A stretch of DNA of 64,000 bases, taken from positions 64,105 through 128,104 of the forward strand of contig CALWAL010000001.1 of the NCBI GenBank assembly GCA_944373145.1. Direction: 5' to 3'. Numbering within the stretch: position 1 is the first letter of the stretch; each line of letters begins with the position of its first letter. Shown here in pieces: positions 45,594-64,000 of the stretch. Made by a program: the position numbers and the translations under genes. The notes beneath the pieces are model-generated. The model was not told the DNA's origin. It made no database searches and was given only the letters and a program-made list of their open reading frames with translations. Source of the DNA: an uncultured Bacilli bacterium (GTDB taxonomy: Bacteria > Bacillota_I > Bacilli_A > RF39 > UBA660).

Positions 45594-45611
45594 GCGAAAC
45601 CTCAATTCTAA

Positions 45612-46571: not shown

Positions 46572-47159
46572 ATGAACTATCCAAACGGAATTCAAAAAAA
46601 CAGTACAAACAACATTATAAATTATGGAAATCGTGGGATGGTTCTAGAAGATGATTTAAATATTACTAATGAATATTACCGCGAATGTGATATTGCCATT
46701 ATTTATAAAAAACCAACACCAATTACCATTCATAAAGTAAATTATAAATCGCGTGATAATGCTTTTATTGAAAAAGCTAGTTTCAAGATTCCTTCAACAA
46801 CAGACTATAATGGTATATATAAAGGAAAGTATATTGATTTTGAAGCTAAAGAAACAAGAAGCAAAACTAGTTTCCCTTTAGTTAATATTCATGAACATCA
46901 ATTAAAGCATTTAGATAGCATTGTTAGACATGGTGGAATTGGATTTATAATTGTTCGTTTTGTAACTCTTAATAAAACATTCTTATTAATGTGGCAAGAT
47001 ATTAAGGATTTTATTGAAGGTGATACAAGAAAATCAATACCCCTTTCCTACTTTGAAAAAAAAGGAAAATTAATTGAAATTGGGCTTAGACCTAGATTAG
47101 ATTATTTAAAATATATTGAGGTGATGTATGAAAAAGATGAAAAAAGGGATTTTAAATAA
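46572..47159 (+). CDS. recU: Holliday junction resolvase RecU.
   Basis: NYGNRGM...DFEAKET... matches the RecU catalytic core. Upstream of the PBP1A gene. Confidence 0.85.
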   Translation: MNYPNGIQKNSTNNIINYGNRGMVLEDDLNITNEYYRECDIAIIYKKPTPITIHKVNYKSRDNAFIEKASFKIPSTTDYNGIYKGKYIDFEAKETRSKTSFPLVNIHEHQLKHLDSIVRHGGIGFIIVRFVTLNKTFLLMWQDIKDFIEGDTRKSIPLSYFEKKGKLIEIGLRPRLDYLKYIEVMYEKDEKRDFK

Positions 47160-49962
47160 TCCAACCAATGTAGCAATTCTTATTATTAGTGCAATTGCCT
47201 TTATTGTTGGTATATTTGCAATTGGCTTTCTTTGGAGTTTCCTTTTAGTAGGAACCATTGATGTCATATGTTTCTTTCCTGCCATTAAAAGATTTATTAA
47301 AAGACTAATAAAAGAAATAAAAAAGAAAGAAACAAAAGAAAAATCAAAACCACAAAAAATAAAGAAAAGAAAAGAAGAAAAAGTTATTTACGAATATAAA
47401 GTTGATGATGAAATCGTAAGTAGCGAAGAGGTTGATGAAATGAAGAAAGGTTCAAAAAAAGAAAAAAAGAAAAGCAATAAAAAAGCTATTTTAGTTAGAA
47501 TATTCCAATATTTTCTATTATTCTGCTGTGTATGTTTTATCTTTGGATGTATTGCTCTGGGTGCTTTTGCCAAATATATAGTTGATAATGCACCAGAATT
47601 TAATCCAGAAAATTTATATTCTAAAGAACCAACAACTATCCTTTATAGTGACGGTTCAGTAATGGCTACTATTGGATTAGAAAATCGCTCTATTCTAACT
47701 TATGATGAGTTACCAGAAGTATTAATTAACGCTTTAATTGCAACTGAAGATGCCAATTTCTTTCAACATAATGGAGTTGACATTAAACGTTTTATGGTCG
47801 CAGCTTTTAAACAATTACTTGGTCAAAGTGATGCCGGTGGTGCTTCTACTTTAACAATGCAATTATCAAAAAACTATATTGTACAAGACTTAACGGCCAC
47901 AGGATGGCAAGGTATTGTTCGTAAATTTACTGATATTTATATGTCTGTTTTCAAAATTGAAACAACTTATACCAAAGAAGAGATATTAGAGTTCTATATT
48001 AATGCTGGCCAAATTGGTAGTGCTTACGGAGTTGAAGCAGCAGCACAAATGTACTTCAATAAAGGTGCTAAAGATCTTAATGTATCTGAAGCAGCTATTC
48101 TAGTTGGAATGTTCCAAGCGCCAACACGATTAAATCCATTCTACTATCCAGAAAATGCTGAAGAAAGAAGAAAAATGGTTTTATACTACATGCGTCGACA
48201 TGGTTACATAAGTGAAGAAGAATATAATATAGCTCTTAAAATGACCGTTGAAAAAATGGTTGTCGGATCACCAAATTCATCTAATACTAATGATGATATT
48301 GAACCAGAAGCAATGTCAGCTGTTGATACTGTTGTTGCTGAAGTTCAAGAAAAAACCGGTATAAACCCACGTACAACCTCAATGACTATCTATACAACAA
48401 TTGATAAAAAAATGCAAAACCATGTTGGAAATATTATGGTTGGTGATACTTATAAATGGGAAAATAGCAAAGTTCAAGCTGGAGTTGCGGTTGTTGATGT
48501 TGAATCAGGTGCTTTAGTTGCTGTTGGTGGTAACCGTGATACAAGTGGAGCTGCTAACATGAACCATGCTACTGATATTAACTATCAAATTGGTTCAACC
48601 GCTAAACCACTTTACGATTATGGTCCAGCAATCGAATACTTAAATTGGAGCACTGGTACTGTTATCGCTGATGAAAAAGATGTAACATATAGTGATGGTA
48701 CAGAAGTTAATAACTGGGATGGAAAATATAAAAACTTTATTAATATTGCGGAAAGTTTAAAATTATCACGTAATATCCCAGCTTTAAAAACATTCAAAAA
48801 TGTAGATAAAGCCAATATTCAAAAATTTGTTACAAGTTTAGGCCTTAGTCCAGAATCATATCTTCATGAAGCTCATGCTATTGGTGGTTATAATGGTGAG
48901 TCTCCACTATCAATGGCTGCGGCTTATGCTGCTTTTGCTAACGGAGGATATTATACTGAACCATATTCATTTACAAAATTAGTTTACTCTGATACTGGTG
49001 AAACTTATGTTAACAATTCTAAAACTAATCAAGTTATGCATGATTATACCGCTTATATGATTTCTAAAATGCTTCAAGAGGCCGCTTCTTATGGTCTTGA
49101 TACCGGTAAATATTATAATGTTAACCGTGTTAAATACGCTGCTAAAACCGGTACAACTAACTATGATGAAAAAGATTTTGAAAGATTTGATTTACCATCA
49201 AGAGCGGTTAAAGACTACTGGGTAGTTGGATATAATACTGAATATTCAATTGGCATTTGGTATGGATATGATAGTATTCGTGAAGGACATAACATGTTGA
49301 GTAGTTTACAACATGCAAGAATCTTCCAAGCTGTAGCTAAAGGTATTTTCAAAAATAAAGATGATTTTGAAAAACCTGATAGTGTTATTGAAGTAGAAAT
49401 TGAGACTGGTAATGCAACACTAATGTTGCCAAGTAAAAATACACCAAGTAAATATCGTGAAAAAGTATTGTTTGTAAAAGGTACGGAACCTAAAGTTGTA
49501 TCTCCTCGTTTTGATACTCTAGATGCTGTTACTAATTTACAAGGATACGCTGAAAACGGTACAGTTCATCTTTCTTGGACTGGAATTGCACAACCAGATG
49601 CTTTCAATACTACAGTTTTAACAGAACAAAATAAATCAGCTTATGAAACAACAAAAGAATTAAATGCTTATGTTAAAAGTTTAATAAATACTAATAAAAA
49701 AGTGTTGGGAACCCTTGGATATAATATATATGTTCAAAATGCTGACGGTACAGAAACATTAGTTGGTTGGACCGATCAAACTTCTTATGATTTAACTGGA
49801 TATTACGGTGATGTTACGGTTGTTGTTAAATCTTGTTATTCCGTATTTACAAAAAGTGCTTCTAGTGGTGTTTCTGTTACAATTAGTACAGGAACGGTAG
49901 CACCACCAACACCAGATCCTGACCCAACCGATCCTACCGAACCAGTGGAACCAGAAATATAA
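47128..49962 (+). CDS. ponA: Class A penicillin-binding protein 1A (glycosyltransferase plus transpeptidase).
   Basis: N-terminal TM. GT51 motifs (EDANFFQHNGVD; RKFTDIYM). Transpeptidase SxxK (GSTAKP) and KTGT. Confidence 0.9.
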   Translation: MKKMKKGILNNPTNVAILIISAIAFIVGIFAIGFLWSFLLVGTIDVICFFPAIKRFIKRLIKEIKKKETKEKSKPQKIKKRKEEKVIYEYKVDDEIVSSEEVDEMKKGSKKEKKKSNKKAILVRIFQYFLLFCCVCFIFGCIALGAFAKYIVDNAPEFNPENLYSKEPTTILYSDGSVMATIGLENRSILTYDELPEVLINALIATEDANFFQHNGVDIKRFMVAAFKQLLGQSDAGGASTLTMQLSKNYIVQDLTATGWQGIVRKFTDIYMSVFKIETTYTKEEILEFYINAGQIGSAYGVEAAAQMYFNKGAKDLNVSEAAILVGMFQAPTRLNPFYYPENAEERRKMVLYYMRRHGYISEEEYNIALKMTVEKMVVGSPNSSNTNDDIEPEAMSAVDTVVAEVQEKTGINPRTTSMTIYTTIDKKMQNHVGNIMVGDTYKWENSKVQAGVAVVDVESGALVAVGGNRDTSGAANMNHATDINYQIGSTAKPLYDYGPAIEYLNWSTGTVIADEKDVTYSDGTEVNNWDGKYKNFINIAESLKLSRNIPALKTFKNVDKANIQKFVTSLGLSPESYLHEAHAIGGYNGESPLSMAAAYAAFANGGYYTEPYSFTKLVYSDTGETYVNNSKTNQVMHDYTAYMISKMLQEAASYGLDTGKYYNVNRVKYAAKTGTTNYDEKDFERFDLPSRAVKDYWVVGYNTEYSIGIWYGYDSIREGHNMLSSLQHARIFQAVAKGIFKNKDDFEKPDSVIEVEIETGNATLMLPSKNTPSKYREKVLFVKGTEPKVVSPRFDTLDAVTNLQGYAENGTVHLSWTGIAQPDAFNTTVLTEQNKSAYETTKELNAYVKSLINTNKKVLGTLGYNIYVQNADGTETLVGWTDQTSYDLTGYYGDVTVVVKSCYSVFTKSASSGVSVTISTGTVAPPTPDPDPTDPTEPVEPEI

Positions 49963-49991
49963 AAAAACGTTCAATCTTGAACGTTTTTTCT
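49961..49991 (+). terminator. Terminator after ponA; appears bidirectional.
   Basis: AACGTTCAA-TC-TTGAACGTT hairpin followed by TTTTTTCTT. Confidence 0.65.
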
Positions 49992-50179
49992 TATTCTTGA
50001 ATATCTTTTTTTATCTTAAAGCCAATAAATAATATAATTAATAAAACGACTAAGATAACAACAATCACCTTATCGTATATTGATAAATCCAAAGAGGGTG
50101 TTTCACTAAATACAAAAAGATGATAACAATACACTAAAGCAAAACCATATAAAATAAAAAACATTCTTTTTAATTTCAT
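49991..50179 (-). CDS. Possible small membrane protein (62 aa).
   Basis: Two hydrophobic segments. No homology evidence. Confidence 0.25.
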   Translation of the reverse strand: MKLKRMFFILYGFALVYCYHLFVFSETPSLDLSIYDKVIVVILVVLLIILFIGFKIKKDIQE

Positions 50180-50453
50180 ATTCCCTCCGTGTCAGTCGAG
50201 CCTAAAATGTAAGAGCACAACCAAAACTAAAACAATAACTCGCTTTGACGATTTAATATAATAACACATTTTTTTAAAAATGCAAATTCACTATATTATA
50301 TTTTAATAAAATTTCTTTATACCCTTTTTCTGCATTAAATAATGTATAATCAATAATAATGTCATCGTATCACACTCCAAATGCAATAGGTGTTATTATA
50401 CACAAAATATTACATTTGTCAAATTAAAAAAGTTAAACTTAATATTTAACTTT

Positions 50454-51917
50454 TTATATAACAATTGTAAATAAATTTCCAGAACCTTTATTAACTAATT
50501 TACCTAAAGTTTGTTGTAACTTAAATCGAACTCCTTCTGGTAATAGTGATAACTTAGCCTGAATTCCTTCTTTAACCATTTCATCTAAACCACGGCCAAA
50601 TATTTCACTTTTCCAAATATTTTCTTTATCTTTCATTAAATAATCAATTAATTCTTTACTTTGAACTTCAGAACCAATAATTGGTTCAAAAGTCGATTCT
50701 ACATCAACACGAATCATATGAATAGAAGGTGCTACCGCCTTTAGGCGAATACCATAGCGACTACCCTGTTTAATAACCTCGGGTGTTTCTAATTTCATAT
50801 CAGCTAGAGTTGGACTAGCAACTCCATATCCTGTTGTTTTAACCATACTTAAAGCACTTTTAATCTGATCATATTCTACTTTCGCTTCATTATATTCTTG
50901 AAATAAAGCAATAATATCAGCCCTACTATTTACATCAACACCAACAATTTCTTTTAAAATTTGATTATATAACTCATCAGGAGCATGAAGATTAATTGTT
51001 ACAACTCCCGTTGAAGTATTTACCTCAGAAATATATGAACGATTTATATATTCACATGCTTCAAAATGTTTAGTAATTGTATCAATATCTCTTAATTTAT
51101 CAACTTCAACAACACTTTCTTTAATTTTATCAATATATATTTTCTTTAACCAATTATCAGGTTTTAGAGAAGCAATCCAATCAGGCATATTAACCTCTAC
51201 TTCTAAAACTGGGAATTCATATAAAGCTTCTCTTAAAATATTATAAACATCTTTTTCATTTAAATTTTCTACGCTAACTGGCATAACTGGCACATTATAA
51301 CTCTCACGCATCTTATCAGCTAGATTAATCGTATCTGGTAGCATTGGATGAGCTGAATTTAATAATACAATAAATGGCTTACCAATACTTTTTAATTCAC
51401 TAATAACTCTTTCTTCTGCTTCAATATAACTACTACGACTAATTTCTCCAAAAGAAGCATCAGTAGTTACAACAATACCAATACTAGAATGATCTTTAAT
51501 AACCTTCTCTGTTCCAATCTCAGCTGCTTCAACAAACGGTATTTCATCATCATACCAAGGTGTTCTAACCATTCTTGGACCATTTTCATCTTCATAGCCT
51601 TTTGCTCCCTCAACTACATACCCAACACAATCAACTAATCTAACACTAGCACTAAAATCATCAATCTTAATACTAGCTGCATTACTAGGAACAAATTTAG
51701 GCTCAGTTGTCATAATTGTTTTACCTTGAGCTGATTGTGGTATCTCATCTAAACATCTTTTTCTTTCATACTCATCTTCAATATTAGGCACCACTAAATT
51801 TTCAATAAACTTTTTAATAAAAGTACTCTTACCAGTTCTAACGGCTCCTACTACTCCAAGATATAAATCTCCACCGGTTCTTTCCGTAATACTTTTAATA
51901 ATATCTACTTTTTCCAT
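50454..51917 (-). CDS. spoIVA: Stage IV sporulation protein A (spore coat morphogenetic ATPase).
   Basis: MEKVDIIKSITERTGGDLYLGVVGAVRTGKSTFIKKF is near-identical to the B. subtilis SpoIVA N-terminus. About 487 aa. A CATATAT sigma-E-like -10 lies about 30 nt upstream. Confidence 0.9.
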   Translation of the reverse strand: MEKVDIIKSITERTGGDLYLGVVGAVRTGKSTFIKKFIENLVVPNIEDEYERKRCLDEIPQSAQGKTIMTTEPKFVPSNAASIKIDDFSASVRLVDCVGYVVEGAKGYEDENGPRMVRTPWYDDEIPFVEAAEIGTEKVIKDHSSIGIVVTTDASFGEISRSSYIEAEERVISELKSIGKPFIVLLNSAHPMLPDTINLADKMRESYNVPVMPVSVENLNEKDVYNILREALYEFPVLEVEVNMPDWIASLKPDNWLKKIYIDKIKESVVEVDKLRDIDTITKHFEACEYINRSYISEVNTSTGVVTINLHAPDELYNQILKEIVGVDVNSRADIIALFQEYNEAKVEYDQIKSALSMVKTTGYGVASPTLADMKLETPEVIKQGSRYGIRLKAVAPSIHMIRVDVESTFEPIIGSEVQSKELIDYLMKDKENIWKSEIFGRGLDEMVKEGIQAKLSLLPEGVRFKLQQTLGKLVNKGSGNLFTIVI

Positions 51918-52003
51918 ATATGACCTACTTTCTTTCATTAAAATATATGTTTACAATAAAAAGATAGAACAAAAAAAGAAGTACAATCATTAAAGATTGC
52001 CTT

Positions 52004-52831
52004 CTAAAATTTAATTAATAATCTTTGTCCTGCTTTAATTAAATTAGGATTATCTCCAATAATATCTTTATTTTCTTCATATAAATCTTTCCAATATACT
52101 TTATACTTCATCGCTATATCCCATAAAGTATCTCCTTTTTGAACTATATAATATTTATTATCATTGCTTAATATTTCATTAACCAAATCTTGTATCTCAT
52201 TATAATTATATCCTGCTTCTTCTAACCTTTTCTTTCGCATATTTCCATTATCCCATTTTCCTTGAATAACTTCCTTAGCAATTTCATTATTAGATTTTTT
52301 TAAATTATTACTTTTTTCTTCATAGATTTTCCATTCATATGAATTTTTAGATACTTTCACATCTGGATGTAAAAATAACGCTTTAGTTATATCATATTGA
52401 TTATTAATAAGCCAAGCATATGCTTTTACTTTTGGTTGATACTTTCCTTTATACCAACCAATTCCTTTAAATCTTCCTTTTCCTACTGCAATATGAATGT
52501 GACTACCAGTTACATTACCTTTTACTCCAGGTTGATAGTATATTTCACTTTGCTTTATCTTTTTATTAATGTATAAATCTGATACATCATTATCATGTAA
52601 TGTCATAATAGTCATATAATCAATTGTTCCATCAGCATATTCTACTTTATTTAAACTCTCTAACCATATGCCATTACAATTACTATATTTTCTTTTTATT
52701 TTACCAGTAAACGGAGCTTTTAAATATTTTAGTTTTGATATATCAATAGCTAAATCACCATTATGAGAAAAATTGCTATTCATATTTTGACTAATATATA
52801 AAACATCTACATTAAGTATAGCTTTCTCCAT
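52004..52831 (-). CDS. Peptidoglycan hydrolase: M23-like endopeptidase domain plus C-terminal LysM (endolysin-like).
   Basis: SHNGDLAID ... TGSHIHIA align with the M23 HxxxD ... HxH motifs (compare lysostaphin HYGVD ... HLHF). C-terminal LysM (YIVQKGDTLWDIAMKY...AGQRLLI). No signal peptide. Confidence 0.6.
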   Translation of the reverse strand: MEKAILNVDVLYISQNMNSNFSHNGDLAIDISKLKYLKAPFTGKIKRKYSNCNGIWLESLNKVEYADGTIDYMTIMTLHDNDVSDLYINKKIKQSEIYYQPGVKGNVTGSHIHIAVGKGRFKGIGWYKGKYQPKVKAYAWLINNQYDITKALFLHPDVKVSKNSYEWKIYEEKSNNLKKSNNEIAKEVIQGKWDNGNMRKKRLEEAGYNYNEIQDLVNEILSNDNKYYIVQKGDTLWDIAMKYKVYWKDLYEENKDIIGDNPNLIKAGQRLLIKF

Positions 52832-53024
52832 TTAACTTCTCCTGTATTAAATTTAAAACTGCACTTATTCCCATAGCAATCGCACCTACCATCATAGATT
52901 TAACTAGATCAAAATTAGATAAATCTGTAGTTGGTAAAACAACAATGATGCTTGCGATGAAGCCTTCTATAAATGTTTTAAGCACTTTGCCAAGTAACTT
53001 GTCGTTCAATATTTTCTTTAACAT
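52812..53024 (-). CDS. Holin-like small membrane protein (phiLC3-type topology).
   Basis: 70 aa. Basic N-terminus, two hydrophobic helices separated by a PTTDLSNF turn, polar C-terminus. Overlaps the lysin gene start. Confidence 0.5.
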   Translation of the reverse strand: MLKKILNDKLLGKVLKTFIEGFIASIIVVLPTTDLSNFDLVKSMMVGAIAMGISAVLNLIQEKLNGESYT

Positions 53025-53391
53025 CTTCTACCTCCTTTAACTCACTAGGTAATTTATATAATTCATCAACCATATTTTTAGCAAATATATCACCTTCAAA
53101 GTGTTGATAATTCCTATAAATTTCACTAATATTATCTTTCATATAATTAGGACAGTATCCTAATTCCATATATTTTTCATATATTCTAATAATTTCATTT
53201 TTTAGTAATGCTTTTAAGCCATTTTTTAAACTCATATAACCTTTTAACATATAAGCTACACTAGAACTTATAATTGTAAAAAGTATCTCTAACCAATACT
53301 TTAAAATAAACTCAATCATATATATCACCTCTTCAAGATAAAAATGGAGATATCGCTTGATATCTCCGAAATAAAACCTAAAAATTTTCAT
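52978..53391 (-). CDS. Small membrane protein of phage-lysis-cassette type (XhlA/BhlA-like?). The true start is probably the internal MIEFILKY.
   Basis: N-terminal TM (WLEILFTIISSSVAYML) followed by a charged helical tail. Sits directly upstream of the holin-like gene. Confidence 0.35.
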   Translation of the reverse strand: MKIFRFYFGDIKRYLHFYLEEVIYMIEFILKYWLEILFTIISSSVAYMLKGYMSLKNGLKALLKNEIIRIYEKYMELGYCPNYMKDNISEIYRNYQHFEGDIFAKNMVDELYKLPSELKEVEDVKENIERQVTWQSA

Positions 53392-53842: not shown

Positions 53843-56800
53843 TTACCATTCATAATTGCATTTGCTAACATCACCAATAATATAAATTGAAAAATCGGTT
53901 TCCCAATAATATGGGGTTAAAATACCCATATCTTGCCACATATACCCCAAATTATTAGCAAATCCAGAAAAAGTACTATCATCTCGCCATTCATCAAAAT
54001 CATATGTATCATATACCTTAACATCAATAAACCAAACATCTTCACACTTTTCTGATTGATAACCATATATTTCAAAATTTGCTTTTCCAACCCCGTTTTT
54101 CAAATTAGATGTTGAAGAAAAATTTTTACTTGAAACAACAGTAAATTTGCCATTTTTACTGTTTTTGATGCCCTTGCTTATTTCTTCATTTATCTCTTTA
54201 GAACTTCCTAACTCGTTGGTTAACTCAATATAAATATCAGTCGACAATTTTTTTCCTTTTCCTTTGGCTGAATGATTCAACATTTTACTAGCTAATTCAA
54301 CCTTTTCAAATTTAGATAAAAAATAATTTCCTATTTTTATTGCTAATTTAGTCAACCATCTAATTCCAAAACCATTTTTATCTATGTTATTAATATAGTC
54401 GTTGCTACAATAAGCATATAAATTTAGGCTCATTATATCTTGATTAGAGGCCATAATACCATCTGCGTTTAAAAATCTACCAAATGTAGTACTGTAATAT
54501 CTACTATTTAAATAATATAAGTTAGTTTCATTATCATAATAGTAACTCCTATATCTAAATGGATTTATAATACCTATATGATTACTATCTGTGATATCAT
54601 TACCATTACTATCTTTAATAGATAATATGTTTCCCCAACTGTCATATCGATATTTAACTATTAAATTACAATTACTATCCAATATTCCTATAATATCTTT
54701 TTGTATATTTTTAACATAATAGTACACATCATTATTATATTTAAAACCTATCAAATCGTCCATACTATTACGTATATAGTATATCACATTATTATTTCTT
54801 TTTTCAAATATAATTGATGTTCCCTCAAGATAATATTCGGTTTTTACTCCATTTACTGTTTTACCAATTCTAATACCATTACTATTATATTTGTAAGTGT
54901 TATTATTATAACTATTTAATTGTCTACCATTTATCCATGTTAATGTATTATTTCCAATTGTTAATGGATTACCTATATCATCATAGGAAATTGTTAAATC
55001 ATTAAATTTAGTTAACTGATCTTTCCAATTAGAATTATTGTACTCATATTTATCTTCTAATTTAATATCATAATTATTCATATCTAGTACTTTTCTATTT
55101 AAGATATTTCCAAATTTATCATAGGTATATTTGATAATTTCTTTATCAATATAATTATTCTCTTCAATTAATTGATTATATTTATCATATCTATACTCAT
55201 TTTCCAAAATGTTATTATGATATATATGTGTGATATTATTTAACTTATCATACTTATATTTATAAATATCATTATTATTTTTTATACTATCGATTAATAA
55301 AGATGTTCTATTACCATTTGTTAAATATGTGTATGTTGTATTAAAAACATTGCTAATATTTCTATTTATTAATCTTCCTAATGAATCATAATTATAATTA
55401 ATACTATTATTATCAAATTCAGTTTTTACAATTGCATCTTCTTTATTTAAAATATTAGTAATACTATTCTGAACGTTATCTAAACTGTGTTCTTTACCGA
55501 TTACATTATCGCAAGTATCATAAATATATTTTACTTCAAATTCATTAAATTTATATAAATTTAATTTTTGTGACAAATCATACGCATATTTATAAATATC
55601 ACTATTAGTTTCTAATTTAACTAGATTACCTTGATTATCATAACTATATTTATATGTATCATTTGATTTAATTATTGTTTTAACTCTATCGAAATTATCA
55701 TATGCATAACTAATAATATGACCATTACCATATGTAGAAGATATCAGATTACCGTTATTTTCTTCATAATGGTTTGTAACTAAAGTAATATTATCTCCAA
55801 TTTTAATTTCTTTAATGTTTAAAAATTCATCATAAACAAAATTATATTCTTTATCATCATCTTTTATTTTAGATAATACATTATTAGAATTATAGGTATA
55901 ATTTATTTTTTTATCACCTTGATTAATTTCAATAACTCTCTTTTTATCATCATAAGTGTAAGAGGTTACTTTTCCTTTAGGATTAGTTATTGAATTTAGT
56001 AATCCAGTCAGTAAATCAATATCATATGTCATTTTGTTTAAATTAGAATCTGTTACACTTTTTATAAATTTACTATCTTCAGTGTATTCAGCACTACTTT
56101 CAATAAATTCATTTTCTATAGTTTCAATGTAAAATTCAAAATTTGGATCCTGTTCTATTAACTCTGATATAAATAGAATATTATTTTCTCTTTTAATATA
56201 TCTAGGCAAATTACTTTCAACTGTATCATTTTCATCGCGATATAATTGGAAATAATAGCTTCCATTTTCTTGCTCTATTAATTTAAATAGTGAATTATTT
56301 AAATTATTTGGAGCTAATACAATCTGATTAGATGTAGCAGTAAAATAATTATCGCCTATTACATTATGATTAATTGTATAATAGCCATTTTCTAATAAGG
56401 TAAATTGCCATAAATCATGATTACACTCCTCATCATCAAAAACAATTGCTTTATTGATATTTTTTAAATAATCATTAGTTCCTTTACATCTAATACGATA
56501 TAAACCATTAGTTATTTCATTTGGAATTTTGTTAACAATTTTAGTAATAATCGGATTGCCAAAACTATCATACTTAATGGTATTATTAATTCCAGTTTCT
56601 GAGATTCCATTTAAAATACGTTCTGACTTTAAATTATCATATTCGTATTTTAAATTTTTTCCTTGCGGATCAGTCATTTTGATCAATTGATTGTTTGAAT
56701 CATATTTAAAATTACTTGTCTCATTTGATAAATTTGATATTGTTGATACGTTACCATTTCCATCATAATTATAATTGATTTCTCTAGGATCTTTAAACAT

Positions 56801-59800
56801 ACAAATATTTGTAATATACATATCGTTAAAATTTAAAGCTTGATTAAATTCTAATGTTATACCATCATAATCTAGCATAGCTACAAAAGTGTAACGATAA
56901 TATTGCCATTCTTCGCATTTAGAATTAATTTTATCTGGCATAAGTATTCCTGTACCCAAATCAGATTCTTCAATGTAATTAAATCCTACACTTACACTAT
57001 TTTGAATACTATCGTATAAATCAATACCTGTTATACCTTCATTTTTATACCAAAAAGATACTTCATAAACATCTCCTGTTTTCCCTTTAATTGGAAAGAT
57101 TTTAGAAATTGTTGAATTCTTAGTCGGTGCCATTGATATTTTAAGTGCTTTATCATCATTATCATTAATTGACACAACATTAAAACATTCACTATTATCA
57201 ATAGTTGTAATTTCAGAGTCCTCTGTTGGGCCACTAGGACTTAATTCACTATATTCACTAGCACTTAATGTCCAATCAGAATATCCTAAAGAAAAGTCGG
57301 AATTAGATAGCATATTATAATTATTTACTATCTCTCCTTCTTCTAATTGAATATCATCAATATAAAAAGTTGTGCTGTCAGGTAATATAAATCTTATTTT
57401 TAAACTAGAGATTGCTTCTTCAGGATAAAAGATAGTTATATCGTGTCGTTTAAATTCATCAGATGCTTTAATAATTTCTTCTTTTACTACACTATCATAT
57501 GATAATGATAATGTTATATTTTGATTATTTTTAATATAAGCACTGAAAGTATAATATTTACCCTTTGATACATTTACTTCTTGATAAAAATTAGAAGTTG
57601 CTTTTAAACTTTTTAAACCATTATTTACATATTCTGTAGATAATGTTAATTCATTTTCTTCTGTTATAAAATTAATTGTATTTTCTTCAAAACTTGTATT
57701 AGATAGTAAATTATTAACATACTTAATTGGCATATATGAGTCAATTACTTTATTTTTATATGGATTGCTTGAATCAACTACTTCAGTCTCCAAATATCTA
57801 TTAGCTATAGAATAAGCACCTTTTAAATTAGTACTATCAATTAGACTACTACTAGATATTAAATTACCATTATTATTAAAAGTCATTGTTTGAACTCTAT
57901 TTTTATTATCTTTAATAGTTGTTGTATTATACGAATATGTCATGTCAAATGATTGACCTAAAGTATCATTAATACTATACTCTGATACTTTTTTAATACG
58001 ATATGGTATTTGATCATAATATTCATATTTTATCTTTAATCCATTAATATCTGTAATATACTCAATTAAAGAATTAGAATTATATGTGAACATAGTTTGT
58101 CCTAATAAATTAGTAATATTAACTAATTTATTATTTTCATGATTTAACGTTACTGTTTCATCGGTACTCACTATAACAATACTATTTTCATTATAAATTA
58201 TATTAATTTCTGAATTATTAGGATCAATTACTTTAGTAATTCTATTGTTATCATCATAAATAACTTGTATTACTTTATTTTCGGTATCAGTAATAATTGA
58301 TAAGTACCCTATATCATTAATAATATTAAACGATGATATATTACCATATTTATCTATCATATTATATTTAGATTCTGCTTTAGTAATTGTTAAATTTAAA
58401 CCATCTTCATCAATATAATTACCTGTCGACTTATCATTTTCATCTAATTGTTCTTGAAAATAGTGAATAGTCCCATCGGCATCTATATATTTTAAATAAT
58501 TTATTTCCTCAGTAGTTTCGCCTTCCTCGGGTATTTGAATTAGTTGATGGTAATTAAATTTATATCCCTTACCAACTCCATAATCATTATCCAAAATAAC
58601 ATCATTAGTGTTATAAATTAAATTCAAACTTACAGTATTCTTTTCGGCGACAGTTCTTCCAATCTGAAATTGCCCTACTAAATTACCATTATAAGTATTA
58701 ATATTAGTATCTCCGATAGAATAACTTTGAGGTATATAATTCATATAACTTTCTAAGCCATTTTGATTTCGATAATGAATTATAAGTGTAGGAGCTAAAG
58801 ATTCATTAACATTAGAAAAAAACGCAGGGTATAATTCATCTTCATATTCTTCATTATGTGATTTTACCATCAATCCATAGTTAGGAGTACCTGAATACCA
58901 TTTTTTAACTAAATTCGTTATATCCATTTCAAGACTTCTTAATTCAACTATTTCATAAGTATTATCCCTAATAATCCAAGCACTTCTAGCTGAATATGAA
59001 TAGTTTTCTAATTTAGGATCATATTTATTGTTCATTATAGTCCAGTTTGCTGTATTCTCATTCCAATCTTGCGTTAGTCTATGAACATCAACTACATTCC
59101 AATCTATTTTTTCCAATGCTAGTGGCCCATCTCCATAATTATATAAGTTTAAGTATGACTTGATAATTTGACTTCCTGTTCCTATAGTTGGCAAATCAAA
59201 TTTTATTAAAGTTCTATTAATTATATCTTGATTATTAATTCGCTCAACACCAGCTTTTAATATATTTTGACTATTTTTATCTTTTCCTGTATCTCCTGGA
59301 TAAATATAAGTGTCATACACTTTACCTTCTTGAGTTGTATTTGTAATTATCGGATCTATGATAACTGGATATGAAGTAAGATTTAACCATTCTTCATCAA
59401 GTACTAAATCTAATAGATATCCTACTTCATTTTGTATCAAATTATAATGAATATTATAATTAATATTTTGATTATTATCTATCATGAACAATGGTTCAAA
59501 AGTAAATATACATTTATCGTTTTCTTTTGCATCTATTTTTTTATCATTAACTACTAAGTTTAAATTAGTTTTAATCAAGAAACTAATTTTATCAATATTA
59601 TTATTTTTTAAAATAATATTTTCTTTTACTTTAGTAGGTAATAATGAATATTCTAAATCAATGCCAGGTAAGATATCTTCATAAATTACTTTTTTATCTA
59701 AAAATTTACCTTTAACATTATTTTGATCGTTTAACTTAATTTCTAAAAAATAGTCATCTTTAATCATTTTCATAAGAAGTAGATTAGTATTTTCCATAAA

Positions 59801-59995
59801 CTGAACAATATAATCATTATTCTTATTTTTGTAATAATTGTTTTCTTTAATAAGAGTATTGTCTATTTCTTCATATTTATTACTTTTTTTAAAGTGGACT
59901 GGATTGCTATATACTTTAGCAATCATTTCTCCGTTTTCTTGTAAAAAATGTTTTTCCTTTTCTTTTCTCAAACCAACTATTTCAATTTCTTTCAT
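53843..59995 (-). CDS. Rhs/YD-repeat polymorphic toxin, 2050 aa, with no signal peptide.
   Basis: Many YD repeats (YxYDxxGN). Rhs core terminus ...NPFRYRSYYYDNETNLYYLNSRYYSTTFGRFLNADG. About 220-aa C-terminal variable domain. DNRLRE-like N-terminal region. Lectin-like internal modules. Strong RBS (TAGGAGG-N6-ATG). Confidence 0.85.
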   Translation of the reverse strand: MKEIEIVGLRKEKEKHFLQENGEMIAKVYSNPVHFKKSNKYEEIDNTLIKENNYYKNKNNDYIVQFMENTNLLLMKMIKDDYFLEIKLNDQNNVKGKFLDKKVIYEDILPGIDLEYSLLPTKVKENIILKNNNIDKISFLIKTNLNLVVNDKKIDAKENDKCIFTFEPLFMIDNNQNINYNIHYNLIQNEVGYLLDLVLDEEWLNLTSYPVIIDPIITNTTQEGKVYDTYIYPGDTGKDKNSQNILKAGVERINNQDIINRTLIKFDLPTIGTGSQIIKSYLNLYNYGDGPLALEKIDWNVVDVHRLTQDWNENTANWTIMNNKYDPKLENYSYSARSAWIIRDNTYEIVELRSLEMDITNLVKKWYSGTPNYGLMVKSHNEEYEDELYPAFFSNVNESLAPTLIIHYRNQNGLESYMNYIPQSYSIGDTNINTYNGNLVGQFQIGRTVAEKNTVSLNLIYNTNDVILDNDYGVGKGYKFNYHQLIQIPEEGETTEEINYLKYIDADGTIHYFQEQLDENDKSTGNYIDEDGLNLTITKAESKYNMIDKYGNISSFNIINDIGYLSIITDTENKVIQVIYDDNNRITKVIDPNNSEINIIYNENSIVIVSTDETVTLNHENNKLVNITNLLGQTMFTYNSNSLIEYITDINGLKIKYEYYDQIPYRIKKVSEYSINDTLGQSFDMTYSYNTTTIKDNKNRVQTMTFNNNGNLISSSSLIDSTNLKGAYSIANRYLETEVVDSSNPYKNKVIDSYMPIKYVNNLLSNTSFEENTINFITEENELTLSTEYVNNGLKSLKATSNFYQEVNVSKGKYYTFSAYIKNNQNITLSLSYDSVVKEEIIKASDEFKRHDITIFYPEEAISSLKIRFILPDSTTFYIDDIQLEEGEIVNNYNMLSNSDFSLGYSDWTLSASEYSELSPSGPTEDSEITTIDNSECFNVVSINDNDDKALKISMAPTKNSTISKIFPIKGKTGDVYEVSFWYKNEGITGIDLYDSIQNSVSVGFNYIEESDLGTGILMPDKINSKCEEWQYYRYTFVAMLDYDGITLEFNQALNFNDMYITNICMFKDPREINYNYDGNGNVSTISNLSNETSNFKYDSNNQLIKMTDPQGKNLKYEYDNLKSERILNGISETGINNTIKYDSFGNPIITKIVNKIPNEITNGLYRIRCKGTNDYLKNINKAIVFDDEECNHDLWQFTLLENGYYTINHNVIGDNYFTATSNQIVLAPNNLNNSLFKLIEQENGSYYFQLYRDENDTVESNLPRYIKRENNILFISELIEQDPNFEFYIETIENEFIESSAEYTEDSKFIKSVTDSNLNKMTYDIDLLTGLLNSITNPKGKVTSYTYDDKKRVIEINQGDKKINYTYNSNNVLSKIKDDDKEYNFVYDEFLNIKEIKIGDNITLVTNHYEENNGNLISSTYGNGHIISYAYDNFDRVKTIIKSNDTYKYSYDNQGNLVKLETNSDIYKYAYDLSQKLNLYKFNEFEVKYIYDTCDNVIGKEHSLDNVQNSITNILNKEDAIVKTEFDNNSINYNYDSLGRLINRNISNVFNTTYTYLTNGNRTSLLIDSIKNNNDIYKYKYDKLNNITHIYHNNILENEYRYDKYNQLIEENNYIDKEIIKYTYDKFGNILNRKVLDMNNYDIKLEDKYEYNNSNWKDQLTKFNDLTISYDDIGNPLTIGNNTLTWINGRQLNSYNNNTYKYNSNGIRIGKTVNGVKTEYYLEGTSIIFEKRNNNVIYYIRNSMDDLIGFKYNNDVYYYVKNIQKDIIGILDSNCNLIVKYRYDSWGNILSIKDSNGNDITDSNHIGIINPFRYRSYYYDNETNLYYLNSRYYSTTFGRFLNADGIMASNQDIMSLNLYAYCSNDYINNIDKNGFGIRWLTKLAIKIGNYFLSKFEKVELASKMLNHSAKGKGKKLSTDIYIELTNELGSSKEINEEISKGIKNSKNGKFTVVSSKNFSSTSNLKNGVGKANFEIYGYQSEKCEDVWFIDVKVYDTYDFDEWRDDSTFSGFANNLGYMWQDMGILTPYYWETDFSIYIIGDVSKCNYEW

Positions 59996-60015: not shown

Positions 60016-61191
60016 CTAAGCAACTCTTTTCCATAAAAATTTATCACAGTAGCTATCTATCATTAAATCTTTAGCAAGTGTAATGTTAAACATCAAATAA
60101 TAAGATTTACCACTAGATGTTGAAGTATTATTAAATACATCTATTTGAGTCACTGTACCATTAGAGTATCCAACATTATATACAATTCCTGTATTACTAG
60201 CATCACTATAAGCTAATAATCCAAATAAACTCATACCCAAAGAAACTATTCCAAGATTTGATAAATTAAAGGAACCTAATTCACAACTATTATCGTTTAA
60301 AATTTTATTCACAGTAACTAATTGCCTAACATATAAATTATGTCCAGATCGGCATATATAGCAAGTACTACCTGATACATTAGTACCTGGAGTGAAATAT
60401 GTGGTATCACTAACTGAATTAATTGTTGATTGAAATTCTTTATCTATCAATTCCCATAATCCACCAAAATAGTTTGTTGGATTATTATTAGTATTAGAAG
60501 TATATATACTTCCAACTGGATAAGCATTTAAAATATCAAAAGTTGGATTATTATTACTAGTAATGCTATTAACAACTAAATTTCCATTTGCATCCAAACT
60601 AAACTTATTATTTTTAGATGTAATACAATCAACAGTAGCGTTATTAACTTCTAAATTTAATTTATTTTCTGTTTTAGTAAATGCATCTTTAAAATAAATA
60701 TCTTCTAATGAAAAATCGCCTTTATTTTTATATTTGTGATTTGCATAAATAGCATTGTTTAAAAAATATTTATTCATATCATTGTTTTTAGGATAAATAA
60801 CTTCGATATCAGCACCACTATAATTTGTATAAATATAGTTAGTACCTTCAAATAAACAAACTAATAGAGTATCAACTTCCTCTACTGTTTCATCTAATCT
60901 AGTGACAGTAGTTTTCATTGCAATATCATTATCTTTAACTACTAAATTCATTTTAAATACATCGCTAGACTCACTAAACTGTAAAGCATTACTTAAATTA
61001 AAAATATATTCCCTTCTATTTTCTGTAGGAGTTGTAGAATTTTGTGTATCTACATATACAATTAAATCATTTGAAGTTGGCACTACAGTTGCACTATTTC
61101 TTTTTACTTGTAATTCTAATAATGGTGCATCTAAAGAATCATTAATAACTAATTCTCCTACACCGGTTAATTTTTGATCATCTAAATTCAT
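60016..61191 (-). CDS. Phage tail-collar/tail-fiber-like protein (391 aa).
   Basis: C-terminal AYPVGSIYTSNTNNNPTNYFGGLWELI resembles the phage tail collar domain consensus (PvGtI...P.G.L.CdG). Asn/Thr-rich beta region. No signal peptide. Lies 20 nt upstream of the Rhs gene. Confidence 0.45.
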   Translation of the reverse strand: MNLDDQKLTGVGELVINDSLDAPLLELQVKRNSATVVPTSNDLIVYVDTQNSTTPTENRREYIFNLSNALQFSESSDVFKMNLVVKDNDIAMKTTVTRLDETVEEVDTLLVCLFEGTNYIYTNYSGADIEVIYPKNNDMNKYFLNNAIYANHKYKNKGDFSLEDIYFKDAFTKTENKLNLEVNNATVDCITSKNNKFSLDANGNLVVNSITSNNNPTFDILNAYPVGSIYTSNTNNNPTNYFGGLWELIDKEFQSTINSVSDTTYFTPGTNVSGSTCYICRSGHNLYVRQLVTVNKILNDNSCELGSFNLSNLGIVSLGMSLFGLLAYSDASNTGIVYNVGYSNGTVTQIDVFNNTSTSSGKSYYLMFNITLAKDLMIDSYCDKFLWKRVA

Positions 61192-61573
61192 TTGTTTTTC
61201 CCTCCTTATTAATCAAAAATTTCTTCACTTCACAATTAAGCGGTTGATAGCTAATCAACTCCATAGGGATTCCACCTTCTTGAGTTTCACAAGACTACTA
61301 GAATAGAAGTATCATTATTGCTATTGTTTGTTATCGCATTATTAATAGCTACTTAATATTTATAACCAAGTATTAATCGCAAGCGTACTTGTTAACGTGC
61401 TAGAACAATAGGAATGTACTTAATTGTGTATATTAAATTGTCAAAGAGCATATATAGAGAAGGAATCTTTTATCAATAGTCACTTTAAATGAATAATCAA
61501 AATATAAAAAAAGGTATATAGTGATAATTTTATTCCTTCACTATATACCTCACTAAAAAGCTAAAAGTATAGT

Positions 61574-62032
61574 CTAAAATTTTAAATTTTTTAATATTCT
61601 TTTTAAACCGGCATTTATACTAAACTTTATTGCCATTTTTGTACAGTTCTCAATTTGAGCAATTTCCTCCAAAGTCATTTCTTCAAAATAATATAACTTT
61701 AATCTCTTTTTTTGAACTTCTGGTAATTTTTCTATTTCTTGATAAAGTCTTTCATAAACAATTTTTTCTAATACTATATCTTCTAATAGTTTTTGTTGAC
61801 CTTTAACTTTATGATATAAAATCTCATCACAGTATTCATATGAGACAAGATGGCGATCATATTCGTTCATTTCTTTTATTGTATCTAATTCAAATTGATT
61901 AAACTCTTTATATAATTCATCACTTATTTTTATTGATTGCTTATTACCCCTACTATCTATAAAAGTTAGCAAATGATCAACTTCCAATGTGTATGGATTG
62001 TCCTTTACTTTTCTTCTTTTTGGTAAATTCAT
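61574..62032 (-). CDS. Sigma-70 region-4-like HTH regulator (TcdR/UviA- or Tn916 Orf7-like small sigma-type protein).
   Basis: C-terminal KKRLKLYYFEEMTLEEIAQIENCTKMAIKFSINAGLKRILKNL matches the sigma region 4.2 pattern (compare TcdR ...KLYY...SRQ..NK...ALRKL). No convincing region 2. Confidence 0.5.
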   Translation of the reverse strand: MNLPKRRKVKDNPYTLEVDHLLTFIDSRGNKQSIKISDELYKEFNQFELDTIKEMNEYDRHLVSYEYCDEILYHKVKGQQKLLEDIVLEKIVYERLYQEIEKLPEVQKKRLKLYYFEEMTLEEIAQIENCTKMAIKFSINAGLKRILKNLKF

Positions 62033-62251
62033 TCCTATCCTCCTATCTAATAAAAATCTCTTAATTAGACAGGAGGACTCCTACATTTTCTTTTCATAAG
62101 CACTCCACAAATTTCAACAAAATTAATTTGTCAAGTACAATAAAATATAGATATGCTTATTTCACACCACACGTTAATGGAGTTAACTCTCTTATTTAGA
62201 GAATCAAAAAAAGATAAACTAAATGTTTATCTTTTTCATTAAAAATTTTTA

Positions 62252-62977
62252 TTACCAAGTTCCAGACCAAGTAACACTTGCTTGTGATATCTCATCAAAA
62301 TAATCTAAAACGGAACTATCATATTGAATCCCTGCATTACTAATATTAAAGTTTCGTGCTTGAGTTGTAGTCACTGTTCGAATAGCATGAGAATAGTCAC
62401 CAGAAGCTTGTTGAGCAATAACTGTAGAAGAAGGGTTTCTTTTTTCTACATCAAAATAAAATGTCTGCTCAAGAGATTCTAAATCACCACTTGGAACTTT
62501 AAAAGTTGCTGCCGAACCCGTATCTGTTATTTTTTCATAATATGAACTAATAGTTCTACAATCATCATCCACTGGACAATATGTTTGGCTAAAATGAGTA
62601 GAACCTCTTATGATAACGCTACTATAATGTCCAATACCGATTGTATCATAACTTCTTACTTTAGGAATATTACGCCATTCTAACGTAGCTTTATATCTAT
62701 AATAATTACCATTAGTTAAAAGATAAGTAGTTAGCTTTTTATAAGTAGTTATAGTACTAGTGGAGGCTAATGGCATAATATTTGGATTAAAAGCTTCGTA
62801 TTCCTCCTGAGTAATTTCCTCTGTAATAGCATAATTACTAGAAGCTCTTGTCAAATTAGAGTCATATATTGTTGTCTTAAAATATTTTTCTTCTTTTGAT
62901 ATTTCTTCAAATTTCAAAGCATTTCCAGTGATTGGCAGAGCAAATAATAATGCTAACATAATTAAAATTTTTTTCAT
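62252..62977 (-). CDS. Secreted protein of unknown function (signal peptide).
   Basis: MKKILIMLALLFALPITGNA signal sequence. Thr/Ser-rich. Confidence 0.5.
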   Translation of the reverse strand: MKKILIMLALLFALPITGNALKFEEISKEEKYFKTTIYDSNLTRASSNYAITEEITQEEYEAFNPNIMPLASTSTITTYKKLTTYLLTNGNYYRYKATLEWRNIPKVRSYDTIGIGHYSSVIIRGSTHFSQTYCPVDDDCRTISSYYEKITDTGSAATFKVPSGDLESLEQTFYFDVEKRNPSSTVIAQQASGDYSHAIRTVTTTQARNFNISNAGIQYDSSVLDYFDEISQASVTWSGTW

Positions 62978-63088
62978 AATTTCTCCTTTTCATTATATTA
63001 TTCACCATATGGTTTTGAGAGTATGACCTCTCACTATATACCTCACGAAAAGAAGAAAAGTATATTCTAAAATTCTCAAATATATTTA

Positions 63089-63823
63089 TTATTTGGATTC
63101 AACCAAATATAAATCAAATGAAATATCTTGAATTTTATCATTTTCTTTATATTCAATATATAATATCAAATTATCTAACAATATTAAATCTTCAGAATTC
63201 TTTAACAATTCATCGACATATAATGTATATGTTTCTAAAAAATCACGCAATTTCATTTCTTTGTCAAAATTATATATCTCATTTTTTATTATTTTATCAT
63301 TGGAAAGCAACTTTACATAGTATGATTTAGAACTAATCTCATCTGTTGTTCCTTCATTATAGTCACTGTATTCTATATTTCTTAACACTATAATATTTCT
63401 ATGCGGATTTAATACTACTATCCCCTCTAAATTTAAATTACTATTACTAGAATAAACTTTAAATACTTTATATTGATTATACTTATTAATCGAAAAAAAT
63501 AATATTGAAAGTAAAAGTATAATTAAAATAGCTATTATAGCAGATATTAATATTCTTTTCTTACCTCTATTGTTGTAATACTTTAATGCTTCTATATTTA
63601 TATCTTTTTCTAAATTTCTTTCACCATTCAATAATTCTTTTACACTAATGTCTAATTTCTCACTTAAATCATTAAGAATAGAAATATCTGGTGCATTTTT
63701 TCCAGTTTCCCATCGACTTACAGTTTTATCATTTACCCCAAGCATCTCTCCAAGCTTTGCTTGAGTTAAATCTTTTTCTTTTCTTAAATTTGCTATAAAT
63801 GTTCCTACTTTATTTAAATCCAT
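63089..63823 (-). CDS. Membrane-anchored XRE-family HTH regulator with an extracytoplasmic C-terminal domain.
   Basis: N-terminal HTH (LRKEKDLTQAKLGEMLGVNDKTVSRWETGKNAPD). Single TM (ILISAIIAILIILLLSILFF). About 130-aa outside domain. Confidence 0.65.
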   Translation of the reverse strand: MDLNKVGTFIANLRKEKDLTQAKLGEMLGVNDKTVSRWETGKNAPDISILNDLSEKLDISVKELLNGERNLEKDINIEALKYYNNRGKKRILISAIIAILIILLLSILFFSINKYNQYKVFKVYSSNSNLNLEGIVVLNPHRNIIVLRNIEYSDYNEGTTDEISSKSYYVKLLSNDKIIKNEIYNFDKEMKLRDFLETYTLYVDELLKNSEDLILLDNLILYIEYKENDKIQDISFDLYLVESK

Positions 63824-63840
63824 ACTTCACCAACTATTTT

Positions 63841-64000
63841 CTAATCTTCTCTATCTAAATCTTTAAATACATCATCTTGAAAAAATGTAGAAACCGATGT
63901 TCCAATACCATCGCAAATTCTTATGATAGTTAATATTTTAGGATTTTTACTTCTACCTTCCACAATATGTTGAATGGTACTTTGAGTTAAGCAACACATA
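63841..64000 (-). CDS. XRE-family HTH protein; partial, the N-terminus lies beyond the window.
   Basis: Own translation: ...CLTQSTIQHIVEGRSKNPKILTIIRICDGIGTSVSTFF..., a typical HTH_XRE helix 3-5. Confidence 0.5.
   Translation of the reverse strand, partial: MCCLTQSTIQHIVEGRSKNPKILTIIRICDGIGTSVSTFFQDDVFKDLDRED

Follow-up and report, generated by a model that had tools for sequence, protein, structure and literature searches.

The window analysed here is the whole stretch of 64,000 nucleotides (nt) taken from contig CALWAL010000001.1 of an uncultured Bacilli bacterium, and towards its end it carries an island that encodes a very large Rhs-repeat protein, a putative toxin, together with holin-like and endolysin-like proteins. 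How is an operon of this kind kept silent, and what would release it? Directly upstream of it, at 61574-64000, four open reading frames (ORFs) lie on the minus strand, placed as in an earlier interpretation of the letters alone (the sequence-only reading), which took them for the regulatory head of a toxin operon. We think it reasonably probable that this head is a regulatory cassette of the Tn916 type, originating from integrative mobile elements, and that it controls the operon of fibre-like, Rhs, immunity, holin and endolysin genes that follows it.

The argument begins with an element that the sequence-only reading did not contain, an RNA of the canT/pemK type in the 380-nt gap between the gene of a sigma-like protein and that of the fibre-like protein, just outside 61574-64000. 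The features concerned are as follows.

61233-61426, minus strand: canT-like structured leader RNA of nine helices (Rfam RF02913, our own model, covariation and homology to Tn916 canT)
61439-61444, minus strand: near-invariant TTGA(C/A)A block, 12 nt upstream of the outer helix of the RNA; promoter element or 5′ RNA tail
Within leader segment 61444-61213, minus strand: AUAAUGAUAC block
61574-62032, minus strand: sigma-region-4-only regulator of 152 residues, with a conserved N-terminal domain and a region 4 of the extracytoplasmic function (ECF) type

An Rfam scan of the island gave a single significant match, to RF02913 ‘pemK RNA’ at 61318-61261 on the minus strand (47.1 bits, gathering threshold 34.8, E 2e-7 to 4e-6), and the motif is found at the equivalent position in 6 of 8 loci of Rhs type and 15 of 20 of mobile-element type. 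A covariance model of our own, built from 18 pemK matches, was run on 86 sources; in 78 of them it finds exactly one match, always on the strand that carries the sigma-like gene, and four of the eight without a match are contigs cut off before the motif could appear. In 71 of 75 loci the start of the motif lies 200-312 nt past the stop codon of the sigma-like gene; the other four carry insertions. Alignment reveals an intergenic layout common to the whole family: a terminator (T1), the TTGA(C/A)A block (TTGAMA below) and a large structured RNA with the Rfam motif as its core. For 22 diverse sequences RNAalifold proposes nine helices with 52 pairs, of which the Rfam model spans only three helices, although all nine covary. 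Paired cells make up 98.7% of the RNA alignment against 84.7% in shuffles, and 40 of the 52 pairs change on both sides, a number reached by none of 500 shuffles and compared with at most 14 in slid controls. The window RNA retains 51 of the 52 consensus pairs; its outer helix is formed by 61426-61418 with 61241-61233, enclosing the Rfam core. Since the covariation shows TCATCAAATAC to be the 5′ strand of this outer helix, the possibility that TCATCAAATAC serves as a -10 box with TTGAMA as its ‘-35’ element was dropped.

In Tn916, canT is the region between orf8 and xis, a cis-acting, orientation-specific and processive anti-terminator (Wirachman & Grossman, PLoS Genet 2024, PMC11658703). It is most likely an RNA and is active with heterologous promoters and terminators when no other genes of Tn916 are present; its authors derived no structure for it and named neither pemK nor Rfam, and the changes that inactivate it are a 162-nt deletion and the S3 substitution of ATA by TGC, 283 nt after the orf8 stop codon (PMC11658703). 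In the Tn916 sequence, taken from pCF10, the pemK model matches 2823-2923 with 55 bits and our own model scores 68.6 bits there. This match falls within both the active canT fragment of 452 nt (2666-3117) and the inactivating deletion (2769-2930), the S3 substitution (2823-2825) alters the first three bases of the motif, and the alignment of Tn916 with the family takes in the full length of the extended RNA, with the two outer helices and a TTGAAA block where the active fragment begins. Taken together, the pemK match, the mapping of S3 and the full-length alignment identify the window RNA, at the level of sequence, as a homologue of canT, and from the Tn916 experiments we infer that it may likewise act as an anti-terminator.

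The order of the parts is also that of Tn916, namely an XRE regulator (orf9 in Tn916), a sigma-region-4 protein (orf7), a structured RNA (canT) and a controlled operon. Orf9 represses Porf7, and Orf7 and Orf8 activate their own transcription, which runs on into the downstream genes (review, PMC5812530). By analogy, the cassette would work in the manner of the Orf9/Orf7/canT region, with the RNA shared by descent. The window differs from Tn916 in that a conserved terminator parts the protein gene from the RNA throughout the family, in that its XRE genes are co-oriented, one of them being membrane-anchored and paired with a secreted protein, and in its cargo, which is an Rhs toxin and a lysis cassette at a fixed chromosomal site instead of excision and conjugation genes.

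The Rfam name would suggest a different role for the RNA, that of a regulator specific to one gene, such as a riboswitch or a translational element, with no anti-terminating function. RF02913 was put forward as a candidate cis-regulatory RNA (Weinberg et al. 2017) and is so classed in Rfam, and the RNA does lie in the 5′ leader of downstream genes and has a conserved GGUG..AUG-like 3′ end. The window match at 61318-61261 exceeds the curated threshold, but no pemK gene follows the RNA there. Elsewhere it precedes unrelated cargo (pemK-recombinase operons, fibre-Rhs operons and the xis-int genes of Tn916), and the Tn916 region is by experiment a processive anti-terminator (PMC11658703), all of which makes a gene-specific regulator hardly probable. 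The main text of Weinberg et al. (2017) does not mention the pemK motif, and in the literature searched we found neither a function for it nor a link to canT, its other mentions being uses as a benchmark.

The protein encoded upstream of the RNA had been described in the sequence-only reading as having region 4 of a sigma factor and no clear region 2, and this description holds. In sigma factors, region 4 recognizes the -35 element and binds the β-flap, and region 2 binds the core enzyme and recognizes the -10 element. Sigma70_r4_2 matches residues 94-146 (E 2.7e-9, 37 bits, Pfam cut-off 25.7) and Sigma70_r4 scores 31.1 bits (cut-off 24.1), whereas no Sigma70_r2 match appears in Pfam even at E<=1. 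The protein falls below every NCBIfam sigma cut-off, the best being TIGR02937 with 39.9 bits against 42.9; the specific sigma models score 20-33 bits against cut-offs of 126-343 and align through their C-terminal part only. When a profile of 42 family sequences was compared with the PDB, sigma factors were matched over region 4 and the linker only (positions 42-155, FliA region 3/4). An AlphaFold model (predicted local distance difference test, pLDDT, 81) places three short β-strands and a long helix where region 2 would sit, and region 4 of SigE superposes on it with a root-mean-square deviation of 1.2-1.4 Å. Fold searches returned matches to region 4 only and did not place the N-terminal domain in a known fold. 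The relatives are full-length proteins of about 156-160 residues that share an invariant N-terminal PKRRKxKDNPYTL arm, a FELDD..NEYDRHIEH helix and an LPxxQKRRxKxYYF motif, followed by the helix-turn-helix (HTH) of region 4.

The sequence-only reading had gone on to liken the protein to the sigma factors TcdR, UviA, BotR and TetR that control toxin loci. In its full form this idea makes it a TcdR-like alternative sigma factor whose anti-sigma or sensor partner, within a signal cascade, is the membrane-anchored XRE protein together with the secreted one. Its region 4 is indeed of ECF type, the genes lie upstream of a toxin/holin operon with which they are syntenic, and the PaLoc offers a precedent in TcdR, the toxins, the TcdE holin and the TcdL lysin remnant. 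However, region 2 is absent by sequence, profile and structure, and the 152-residue protein is therefore not a sigma factor of the TcdR/UviA/BotR/TetR type. As to the partner, the membrane protein carries a DNA-binding XRE-type HTH and no anti-sigma domain, and the two modules occur independently of each other, so that an obligate anti-sigma pairing is unlikely. We regard the cascade as a whole as very unlikely.

The relatives of the protein instead point to mobile elements, as the preferred Tn916-type reading would have it. A profile search of 1.84 billion representative proteins returned 188 clusters at E<=1e-30 and 1086 at E<=1e-10, and a genome scan found 363 loci encoding relatives in gut Bacilli, Lachnospiraceae and Oscillospiraceae; for 87 loci the ORFs of the neighbourhood were called and clustered. 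In the majority context a small ORF comes after the gene, then genes for a PemK/MazF toxin, for DUF6870 and for either one or two large serine recombinases or a tyrosine integrase, often with an XRE gene upstream on the opposite strand. This context is the regulatory and recombination end of integrative elements, and the family thus turns out to be of the integrative-element regulator kind that the sequence-only reading had set against its own sigma-factor proposal. Relatives with 30% identity sit between tet(O) and a recombinase gene on an Enterococcus faecalis plasmid and in a Streptococcus suis element; phage and plasmid collections contain only partial relatives (24-45% identical), and the two of these that were looked at adjoin tet(O). 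Region 4 of the family aligns with that of Tn916 Orf7 (hhalign probability 92.5%, E 5e-7, 60 region-4 columns only). Orf8, a small HTH protein, was also compared, by profile, with the N-terminal domain of the family, and no similarity was found.

The near-constant company of gene and RNA raises the question of whether the protein acts on the RNA. It might be the protein partner of the RNA, its basic arm binding the nascent canT-like transcript and its region 4 docking on the β-flap of RNA polymerase, so that the two jointly would let the enzyme resist terminators in the manner of lambda N or Q. The two are linked almost without exception and at a fixed distance, the arginine- and lysine-rich PKRRKxKDNPY arm is invariant, the N-terminal domain has no known fold relative, and in Tn916, too, a gene for a region-4 protein precedes canT. 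Yet canT of Tn916 needs no other gene of the element to anti-terminate in a reporter (PMC11658703), and T1, the TTGAMA block and the RNA remain together where insertions part them from the protein gene (L071 and L005, two of the loci compared), so that the linkage may reflect no more than a shared regulatory unit. A partnership of the lambda N or Q kind is, in our view, quite unlikely. Somewhat less so, although still unlikely, is the tentative idea of a portable switch in two parts, made of the region-4-only protein and the canT-type RNA, in which the N-terminal domain would be a new polymerase- or RNA-binding module that starts or loads an anti-terminating complex at the near-invariant and unconventional junction of T1 and TTGAMA, and which would have been captured from integrative elements to gate a suicidal release of toxin. 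If this were true, the orphan ‘pemK’ motif would gain a function across hundreds of elements.

In L071 (10578-11513), the insertion between the sigma-like gene and the T1-TTGACA-RNA unit is a PD-(D/E)XK transposase gene; the unit is intact and abuts the fibre gene.

What a Tn916-type cassette would control here is set by the five genes that follow the regulatory head on the same strand, before the chromosomal spoIVA gene.

60016-61191, minus strand: 391-residue protein with a Gp10_C domain (phage baseplate/tail-fibre type), first gene of the controlled operon
53843-59995, minus strand: 2050-residue Rhs-repeat protein whose variable C-terminal end is a putative toxin; orphan C-terminal fragments occur in contig L003
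53378-53821, minus strand: 147-residue putative immunity protein, from its position after Rhs and its restriction to the window lineage
52978-53391, minus strand: holin-like small membrane protein; the longest ORF has 137 residues and the gene is called as 113 residues from 53319 (gene calls in L003)
52004-52831, minus strand: endolysin-like protein of 275 residues (CW_7 and LysM domains, PHROG endolysin families)

Transcription through these genes is punctuated by hairpins, which folding places as follows.

62206-62238, minus strand: terminator after the secreted-protein gene (13-base-pair hairpin with a U-run, free energy -11.6, z -3.1)
62037-62078, minus strand: hairpin masking the GGAGG ribosome-binding site of the sigma-like gene (15 base pairs, free energy -22.4, z -4.9)
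61505-61551, minus strand: terminator T1 (14-base-pair hairpin with U7, free energy -17.4, z -4.8)
53346-53367, minus strand: internal intrinsic terminator between the 147-residue and the holin-like genes (9-base-pair hairpin with a U-run, z -4.4)
51970-52005, minus strand: hairpin and U-run after the endolysin gene and before spoIVA

Four terminators are thus seen by folding in the window island; a terminator scan with strict criteria had missed AT-rich ones among those later found in this way. The pairing of anti-Shine-Dalgarno and Shine-Dalgarno sequences at the sigma-like gene is conserved throughout the family in an alignment of 31 loci. A hairpin with a T-run, differing in sequence, recurs upstream of the holin gene in L010, in L017 and before each of the extra holin copies of L003, and the terminator between the toxin and immunity genes on one side and the holin and endolysin genes on the other fits a lysis step gated by anti-termination.

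On this basis the following mechanism can be proposed. By default the head would be silent through XRE repression, the flanking terminators and the masked ribosome-binding site, the XRE proteins holding the system off as Orf9 does in Tn916. The 152-residue protein, once made, would activate transcription entering the leader, by analogy with Orf7 and Orf8, and the canT-like leader RNA would render the polymerase terminator-resistant. A polymerase primed by the leader would ignore terminators and so pass the one at 53367-53346 to reach the holin and endolysin genes, whereas transcripts starting downstream of the leader would end at this terminator, after the toxin and immunity genes; lysis-mediated release of the toxin would then be tied to the regulatory head alone. 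Finally, the membrane-anchored XRE protein and the secreted protein are probably a membrane-tethered one-component sensor and its extracellular partner, feeding a signal into the switch, which is the weakest step of the scheme.

Whether the head governs the operon or merely adjoins it can be judged from its recurrence. Contigs L001 and L003 are metagenome contigs identical to the window, and L001-L004 represent the lineage of the window itself. A minority of family loci (L001-L004, L008, L009, L010/11, L017, L031, L041 and L071) have a fibre-like gene and then an Rhs gene after the sigma-like gene, the Rhs proteins being 42-51% identical to that of the window and the holin and endolysin genes coming next where the contig extends that far. 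The order sigma-like, fibre-like, Rhs is therefore found in seven lineages besides that of the window, and the synteny with Rhs and holin genes whose lack would have told against a regulatory head has been looked for and found, bearing out the view of these genes as the conserved head of a toxin/lysis operon. As the same gene order recurs in other genomes with proteins that are 42-60% identical, the arrangement is not due to chance. In a neighbour-joining tree of the sigma-like protein, computed without bootstrap values, the Rhs-linked loci form one clade, in which the integrase-linked L005 and the variant-cargo L012 are nested.

The opposing view, that the head is an inert remnant of a mobile element or prophage beside an Rhs operon that uses its own promoter, draws on the fact that the family is normally at home in mobile elements, on decayed and duplicated fragments further upstream in L003 and on the guanine and cytosine (GC) content of the island, 24.8% against 29.1% in the flanking chromosome. 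It sits poorly with the intact state of all ORFs and the preserved gene order, with an RNA that has lost a single consensus pair and shows compensatory changes across the Rhs-linked clade, and with the position of that RNA directly upstream of the fibre gene even after the transposase insertion in L071. An inert remnant is highly improbable.

Three loci show other cargo. In L012 (9989-15146), L074 and L027 the sigma-like gene is followed by a gene for a protein of about 800 residues, with PG_binding_1 and an Rv2525c-type glycoside-hydrolase-like domain, and by an endolysin gene, which replace the fibre and Rhs genes; no canT-like RNA was detected in these variant islands. L012 has a T1-type block immediately upstream of its holin and endolysin genes.

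The remaining genes of the head are the two XRE regulators and the secreted protein.

63841-64000, minus strand: 3′ portion of the gene for a small XRE (HTH_3) regulator (HTH_3 E 6e-4 over the 52 residues that lie in the window)
63089-63823, minus strand: membrane-anchored XRE regulator of 244 residues (HTH_3 at residues 10-64, Pfam E 1e-13)
63031-63079, minus strand: second copy of a repeat, between the membrane-XRE and secreted-protein genes, 84% identical to a block after the sigma-like stop codon
62252-62977, minus strand: predicted secreted protein of 241 residues (signal-like N-terminus, all-β Ig-like sandwich, invariant C134/C140 and GDYxH)

Both XRE regulators named in the sequence-only reading are present. 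The gene cut off by the end of the window is complete in L001 and L003, where it encodes a 79-residue HTH_3 protein. For the 244-residue protein, that reading had proposed a membrane anchor and an outside domain of about 130 residues, and the prediction agrees: a single strongly hydrophobic stretch follows HTH_3 within residues 86-116 (Kyte-Doolittle 3.35), with RGKKR just before it, and hydropathy puts the transmembrane segment at about residues 91-112 with the positive charges on its N-terminal side, in keeping with the predicted topology. The C-terminal portion of about 130 residues has no family match, and a Pfam scan at E<=1 yields the XRE-type HTH and chance-level matches only, with no anti-sigma domain (zf-HC2, RsgI_N or similar). 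The 241-residue protein is likewise predicted to be secreted, with a hydrophobic, signal-like segment at residues 3-23, and has two invariant cysteines. It has no match in Pfam, NCBIfam or PHROG and no annotation, and 41 relatives of it were found. The predicted model (pLDDT 90.5) is an Ig-like β-sandwich with generic fold matches only, and for this reason the fold was dropped as a lead to function. Homology to the outer domain of the membrane XRE protein was considered as well, and no similarity was found.

In every context examined (the window lineage, L008, L010/11, L012, L063, L071, L090, L092 and L094), a gene of the family of the 241-residue protein (SEC241) lies directly 3′ of an XRE gene encoding 224-264 residues, or 361-363 residues in the distant pairs L005 and L076. 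What follows the pair varies, from the sigma-like/canT unit to ABC/FtsX transporter genes and, in L090, a holin/CHAP-lysin/fibre/Rhs operon, so that the pair is a separable module. Among the loci with the sigma-like gene, L008, L010/11, L012 and L071 also have the pair, and L009, L017, L031 and L041 do not; L090, L092 and L094 have the pair and no sigma-like gene. The pair is thus not an obligate partner of the sigma-like protein. Its association, more than once, with Rhs/lysis operons fits a sensing role. In the island of L090 (6545-16741) the genes for the membrane XRE and secreted proteins are accompanied by a divergent XRE gene and directly followed by genes for a Phage_holin_6_1 holin, a CHAP lysin, a Gp10_C fibre and a 2099-residue Rhs protein; here the lysis genes precede the toxin, and there is neither a sigma-like gene nor the RNA.

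Two further observations concern T1 and its surroundings. The 5′ arm of T1 (AGTGAGG..) is conserved family-wide and moves with the RNA unit; its conservation in sequence as well as in pairing is unusual for a terminator. In many loci, and at 61551-61525 of the window, it contains a Shine-Dalgarno-like GAGGAA or GAGGTA, a GTG or ATG and a mini-ORF of three to four codons that ends in the hairpin loop. The block 61538-61586, which follows the sigma-like stop codon and includes the T1 5′ arm, forms with 63031-63079 a 49-nt direct repeat of 84% identity that occurs in the window lineage only.

Several points weigh against a Tn916-type cassette in control of this operon. The most immediate is the position of T1 between the sigma-like gene and the RNA, in the path of transcription into the leader: lying upstream of the RNA, T1 cannot be suppressed by it. 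No convincing sigma-A promoter was found between T1 and the RNA in most loci, and a sigma-A promoter scan of the head gave the same counts as shuffles. That leaves two possibilities, a T1 that is leaky or regulated, or an unconventional promoter situated between it and the RNA. The likeness to Orf7 is confined to region 4, the N-terminal two thirds failing to align; there is no Orf8 homologue and no ORF between the sigma-like gene and the RNA; and the activator role of Orf7 and Orf8 is an old model, known to us through a review, and not a demonstrated mechanism (PMC5812530). Protein and RNA do not always travel together either. L012 and L074 carry the sigma-like gene without a detectable RNA, the relatives of 30% identity beside tet(O) give no RNA match, and L090 has the membrane XRE and secreted proteins without sigma-like gene or RNA; the RNA was not found in L085 either, nor in islands without the sigma-like gene, and L029 gives only a sub-threshold 15.6 bits. 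Lastly, homologies, structures and terminator positions are computed from sequence, and expression, anti-termination, DNA binding and lysis we infer.

As for the cargo, the N-terminus of the 147-residue protein is very hydrophobic (Kyte-Doolittle 3.18), and other Rhs islands contain no relatives of it; its position, uniqueness and hydrophobicity are as would be expected of a toxin-specific immunity protein. For the holin candidate the only match is PHROG 4105 (E 4e-10), a PHROG of unknown function, its hydropathy fits a membrane protein, and a gene with the Pfam domain Phage_holin_6_1 is present in the related island L090. In the endolysin-like protein the Pfam matches are the cell-wall-binding CW_7 and LysM only, and the N-terminal 170 or so residues, presumably catalytic, match PHROG endolysin families only.

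Contig L003 shows the island to be at a chromosomal site between the iPGM and spoIVA genes. Beyond the end of the window at 64000, L003 continues (1487-7527) with orphaned C-terminal pieces of Rhs arranged in an array, which share 70-75% identity with Rhs residues 1722-1880, and with small genes of unknown kind, three additional pieces of the holin gene (96-100% identical) and one N-terminal piece of the endolysin. This stretch looks like a stack of displaced toxin, immunity and lysis cassettes upstream of the regulators. On the other side, the chromosome at 44477-51938 encodes spoIVA, a class A penicillin-binding protein, RecU, a DivIVA-domain protein and an HTH_25 (RodZ-type) protein, which indicates that the host is a spore-forming member of the Bacillota; the GC content of the whole window is 28%.

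In the literature searched we found no description of the identity of pemK with canT, of the nine-helix structure, of the near-obligate pairing of a region-2-less protein with this RNA, or of a canT-type cassette driving an Rhs and lysis operon with a terminator guarding the lysis genes. The analysis ties the Rfam ‘pemK’ motif, without a function since 2017, to the canT anti-terminator as the core of a larger RNA, and supplies for canT a structure based on covariation. A large family of gut Bacillota proteins annotated as ‘sigma factors’ would be recognized as region-2-less proteins encoded almost always just upstream of this RNA, a pairing that makes the long-unclear role of Orf7-type proteins amenable to testing. 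The island also suggests that a mobile-element switch can be domesticated to govern a lethal operon: with the lysis genes behind a terminator, toxin and immunity protein could be expressed without lysis, and release of the Rhs protein would be restricted to cells in which the switch has flipped. The membrane XRE and secreted proteins, in turn, constitute a recurring sensor-like pair beside toxin/lysis operons.

Among known systems, the loci controlled by the group-5 sigma factors TcdR, UviA, BotR and TetR resemble the island in having a small region-4 regulator at the head of a locus for a large toxin, a holin and a lysin. Those regulators are complete sigma factors with region 2, which the 152-residue protein lacks. 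With a putative large signal-less toxin encoded beside holin-like and endolysin-like proteins, the island also recalls holin/endolysin-mediated toxin release, such as type 10 secretion, with the Tc toxin of Yersinia entomophaga and TcdE/TcdL of Clostridioides difficile as examples; the window differs in having a Gram-positive Rhs protein with a phage-fibre-like partner. For Yersinia, release of the toxin by a specialized subpopulation is documented (PMC10847048), and we found no description, in the literature searched, of transposon-type anti-terminator RNA control for such release systems. The put RNAs of phage HK022 and EAR of the Bacillus eps operon are structured leader RNAs that make polymerase terminator-resistant over long operons (PMC11658703); the likeness is functional only, and extends to the window RNA by analogy. 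Compared by description only, BcrR of Enterococcus and the ToxR-ToxS and TcpP-TcpH pairs of Vibrio share with the membrane XRE and secreted proteins the arrangement of a membrane-tethered DNA-binding domain and an adjacent gene for an exported protein. The DNA-binding domains of ToxR and TcpP are winged-helix domains, and BcrR, which has four membrane segments, is encoded with bcrABD, just as relatives of the window pair adjoin ABC/FtsX transporter genes.

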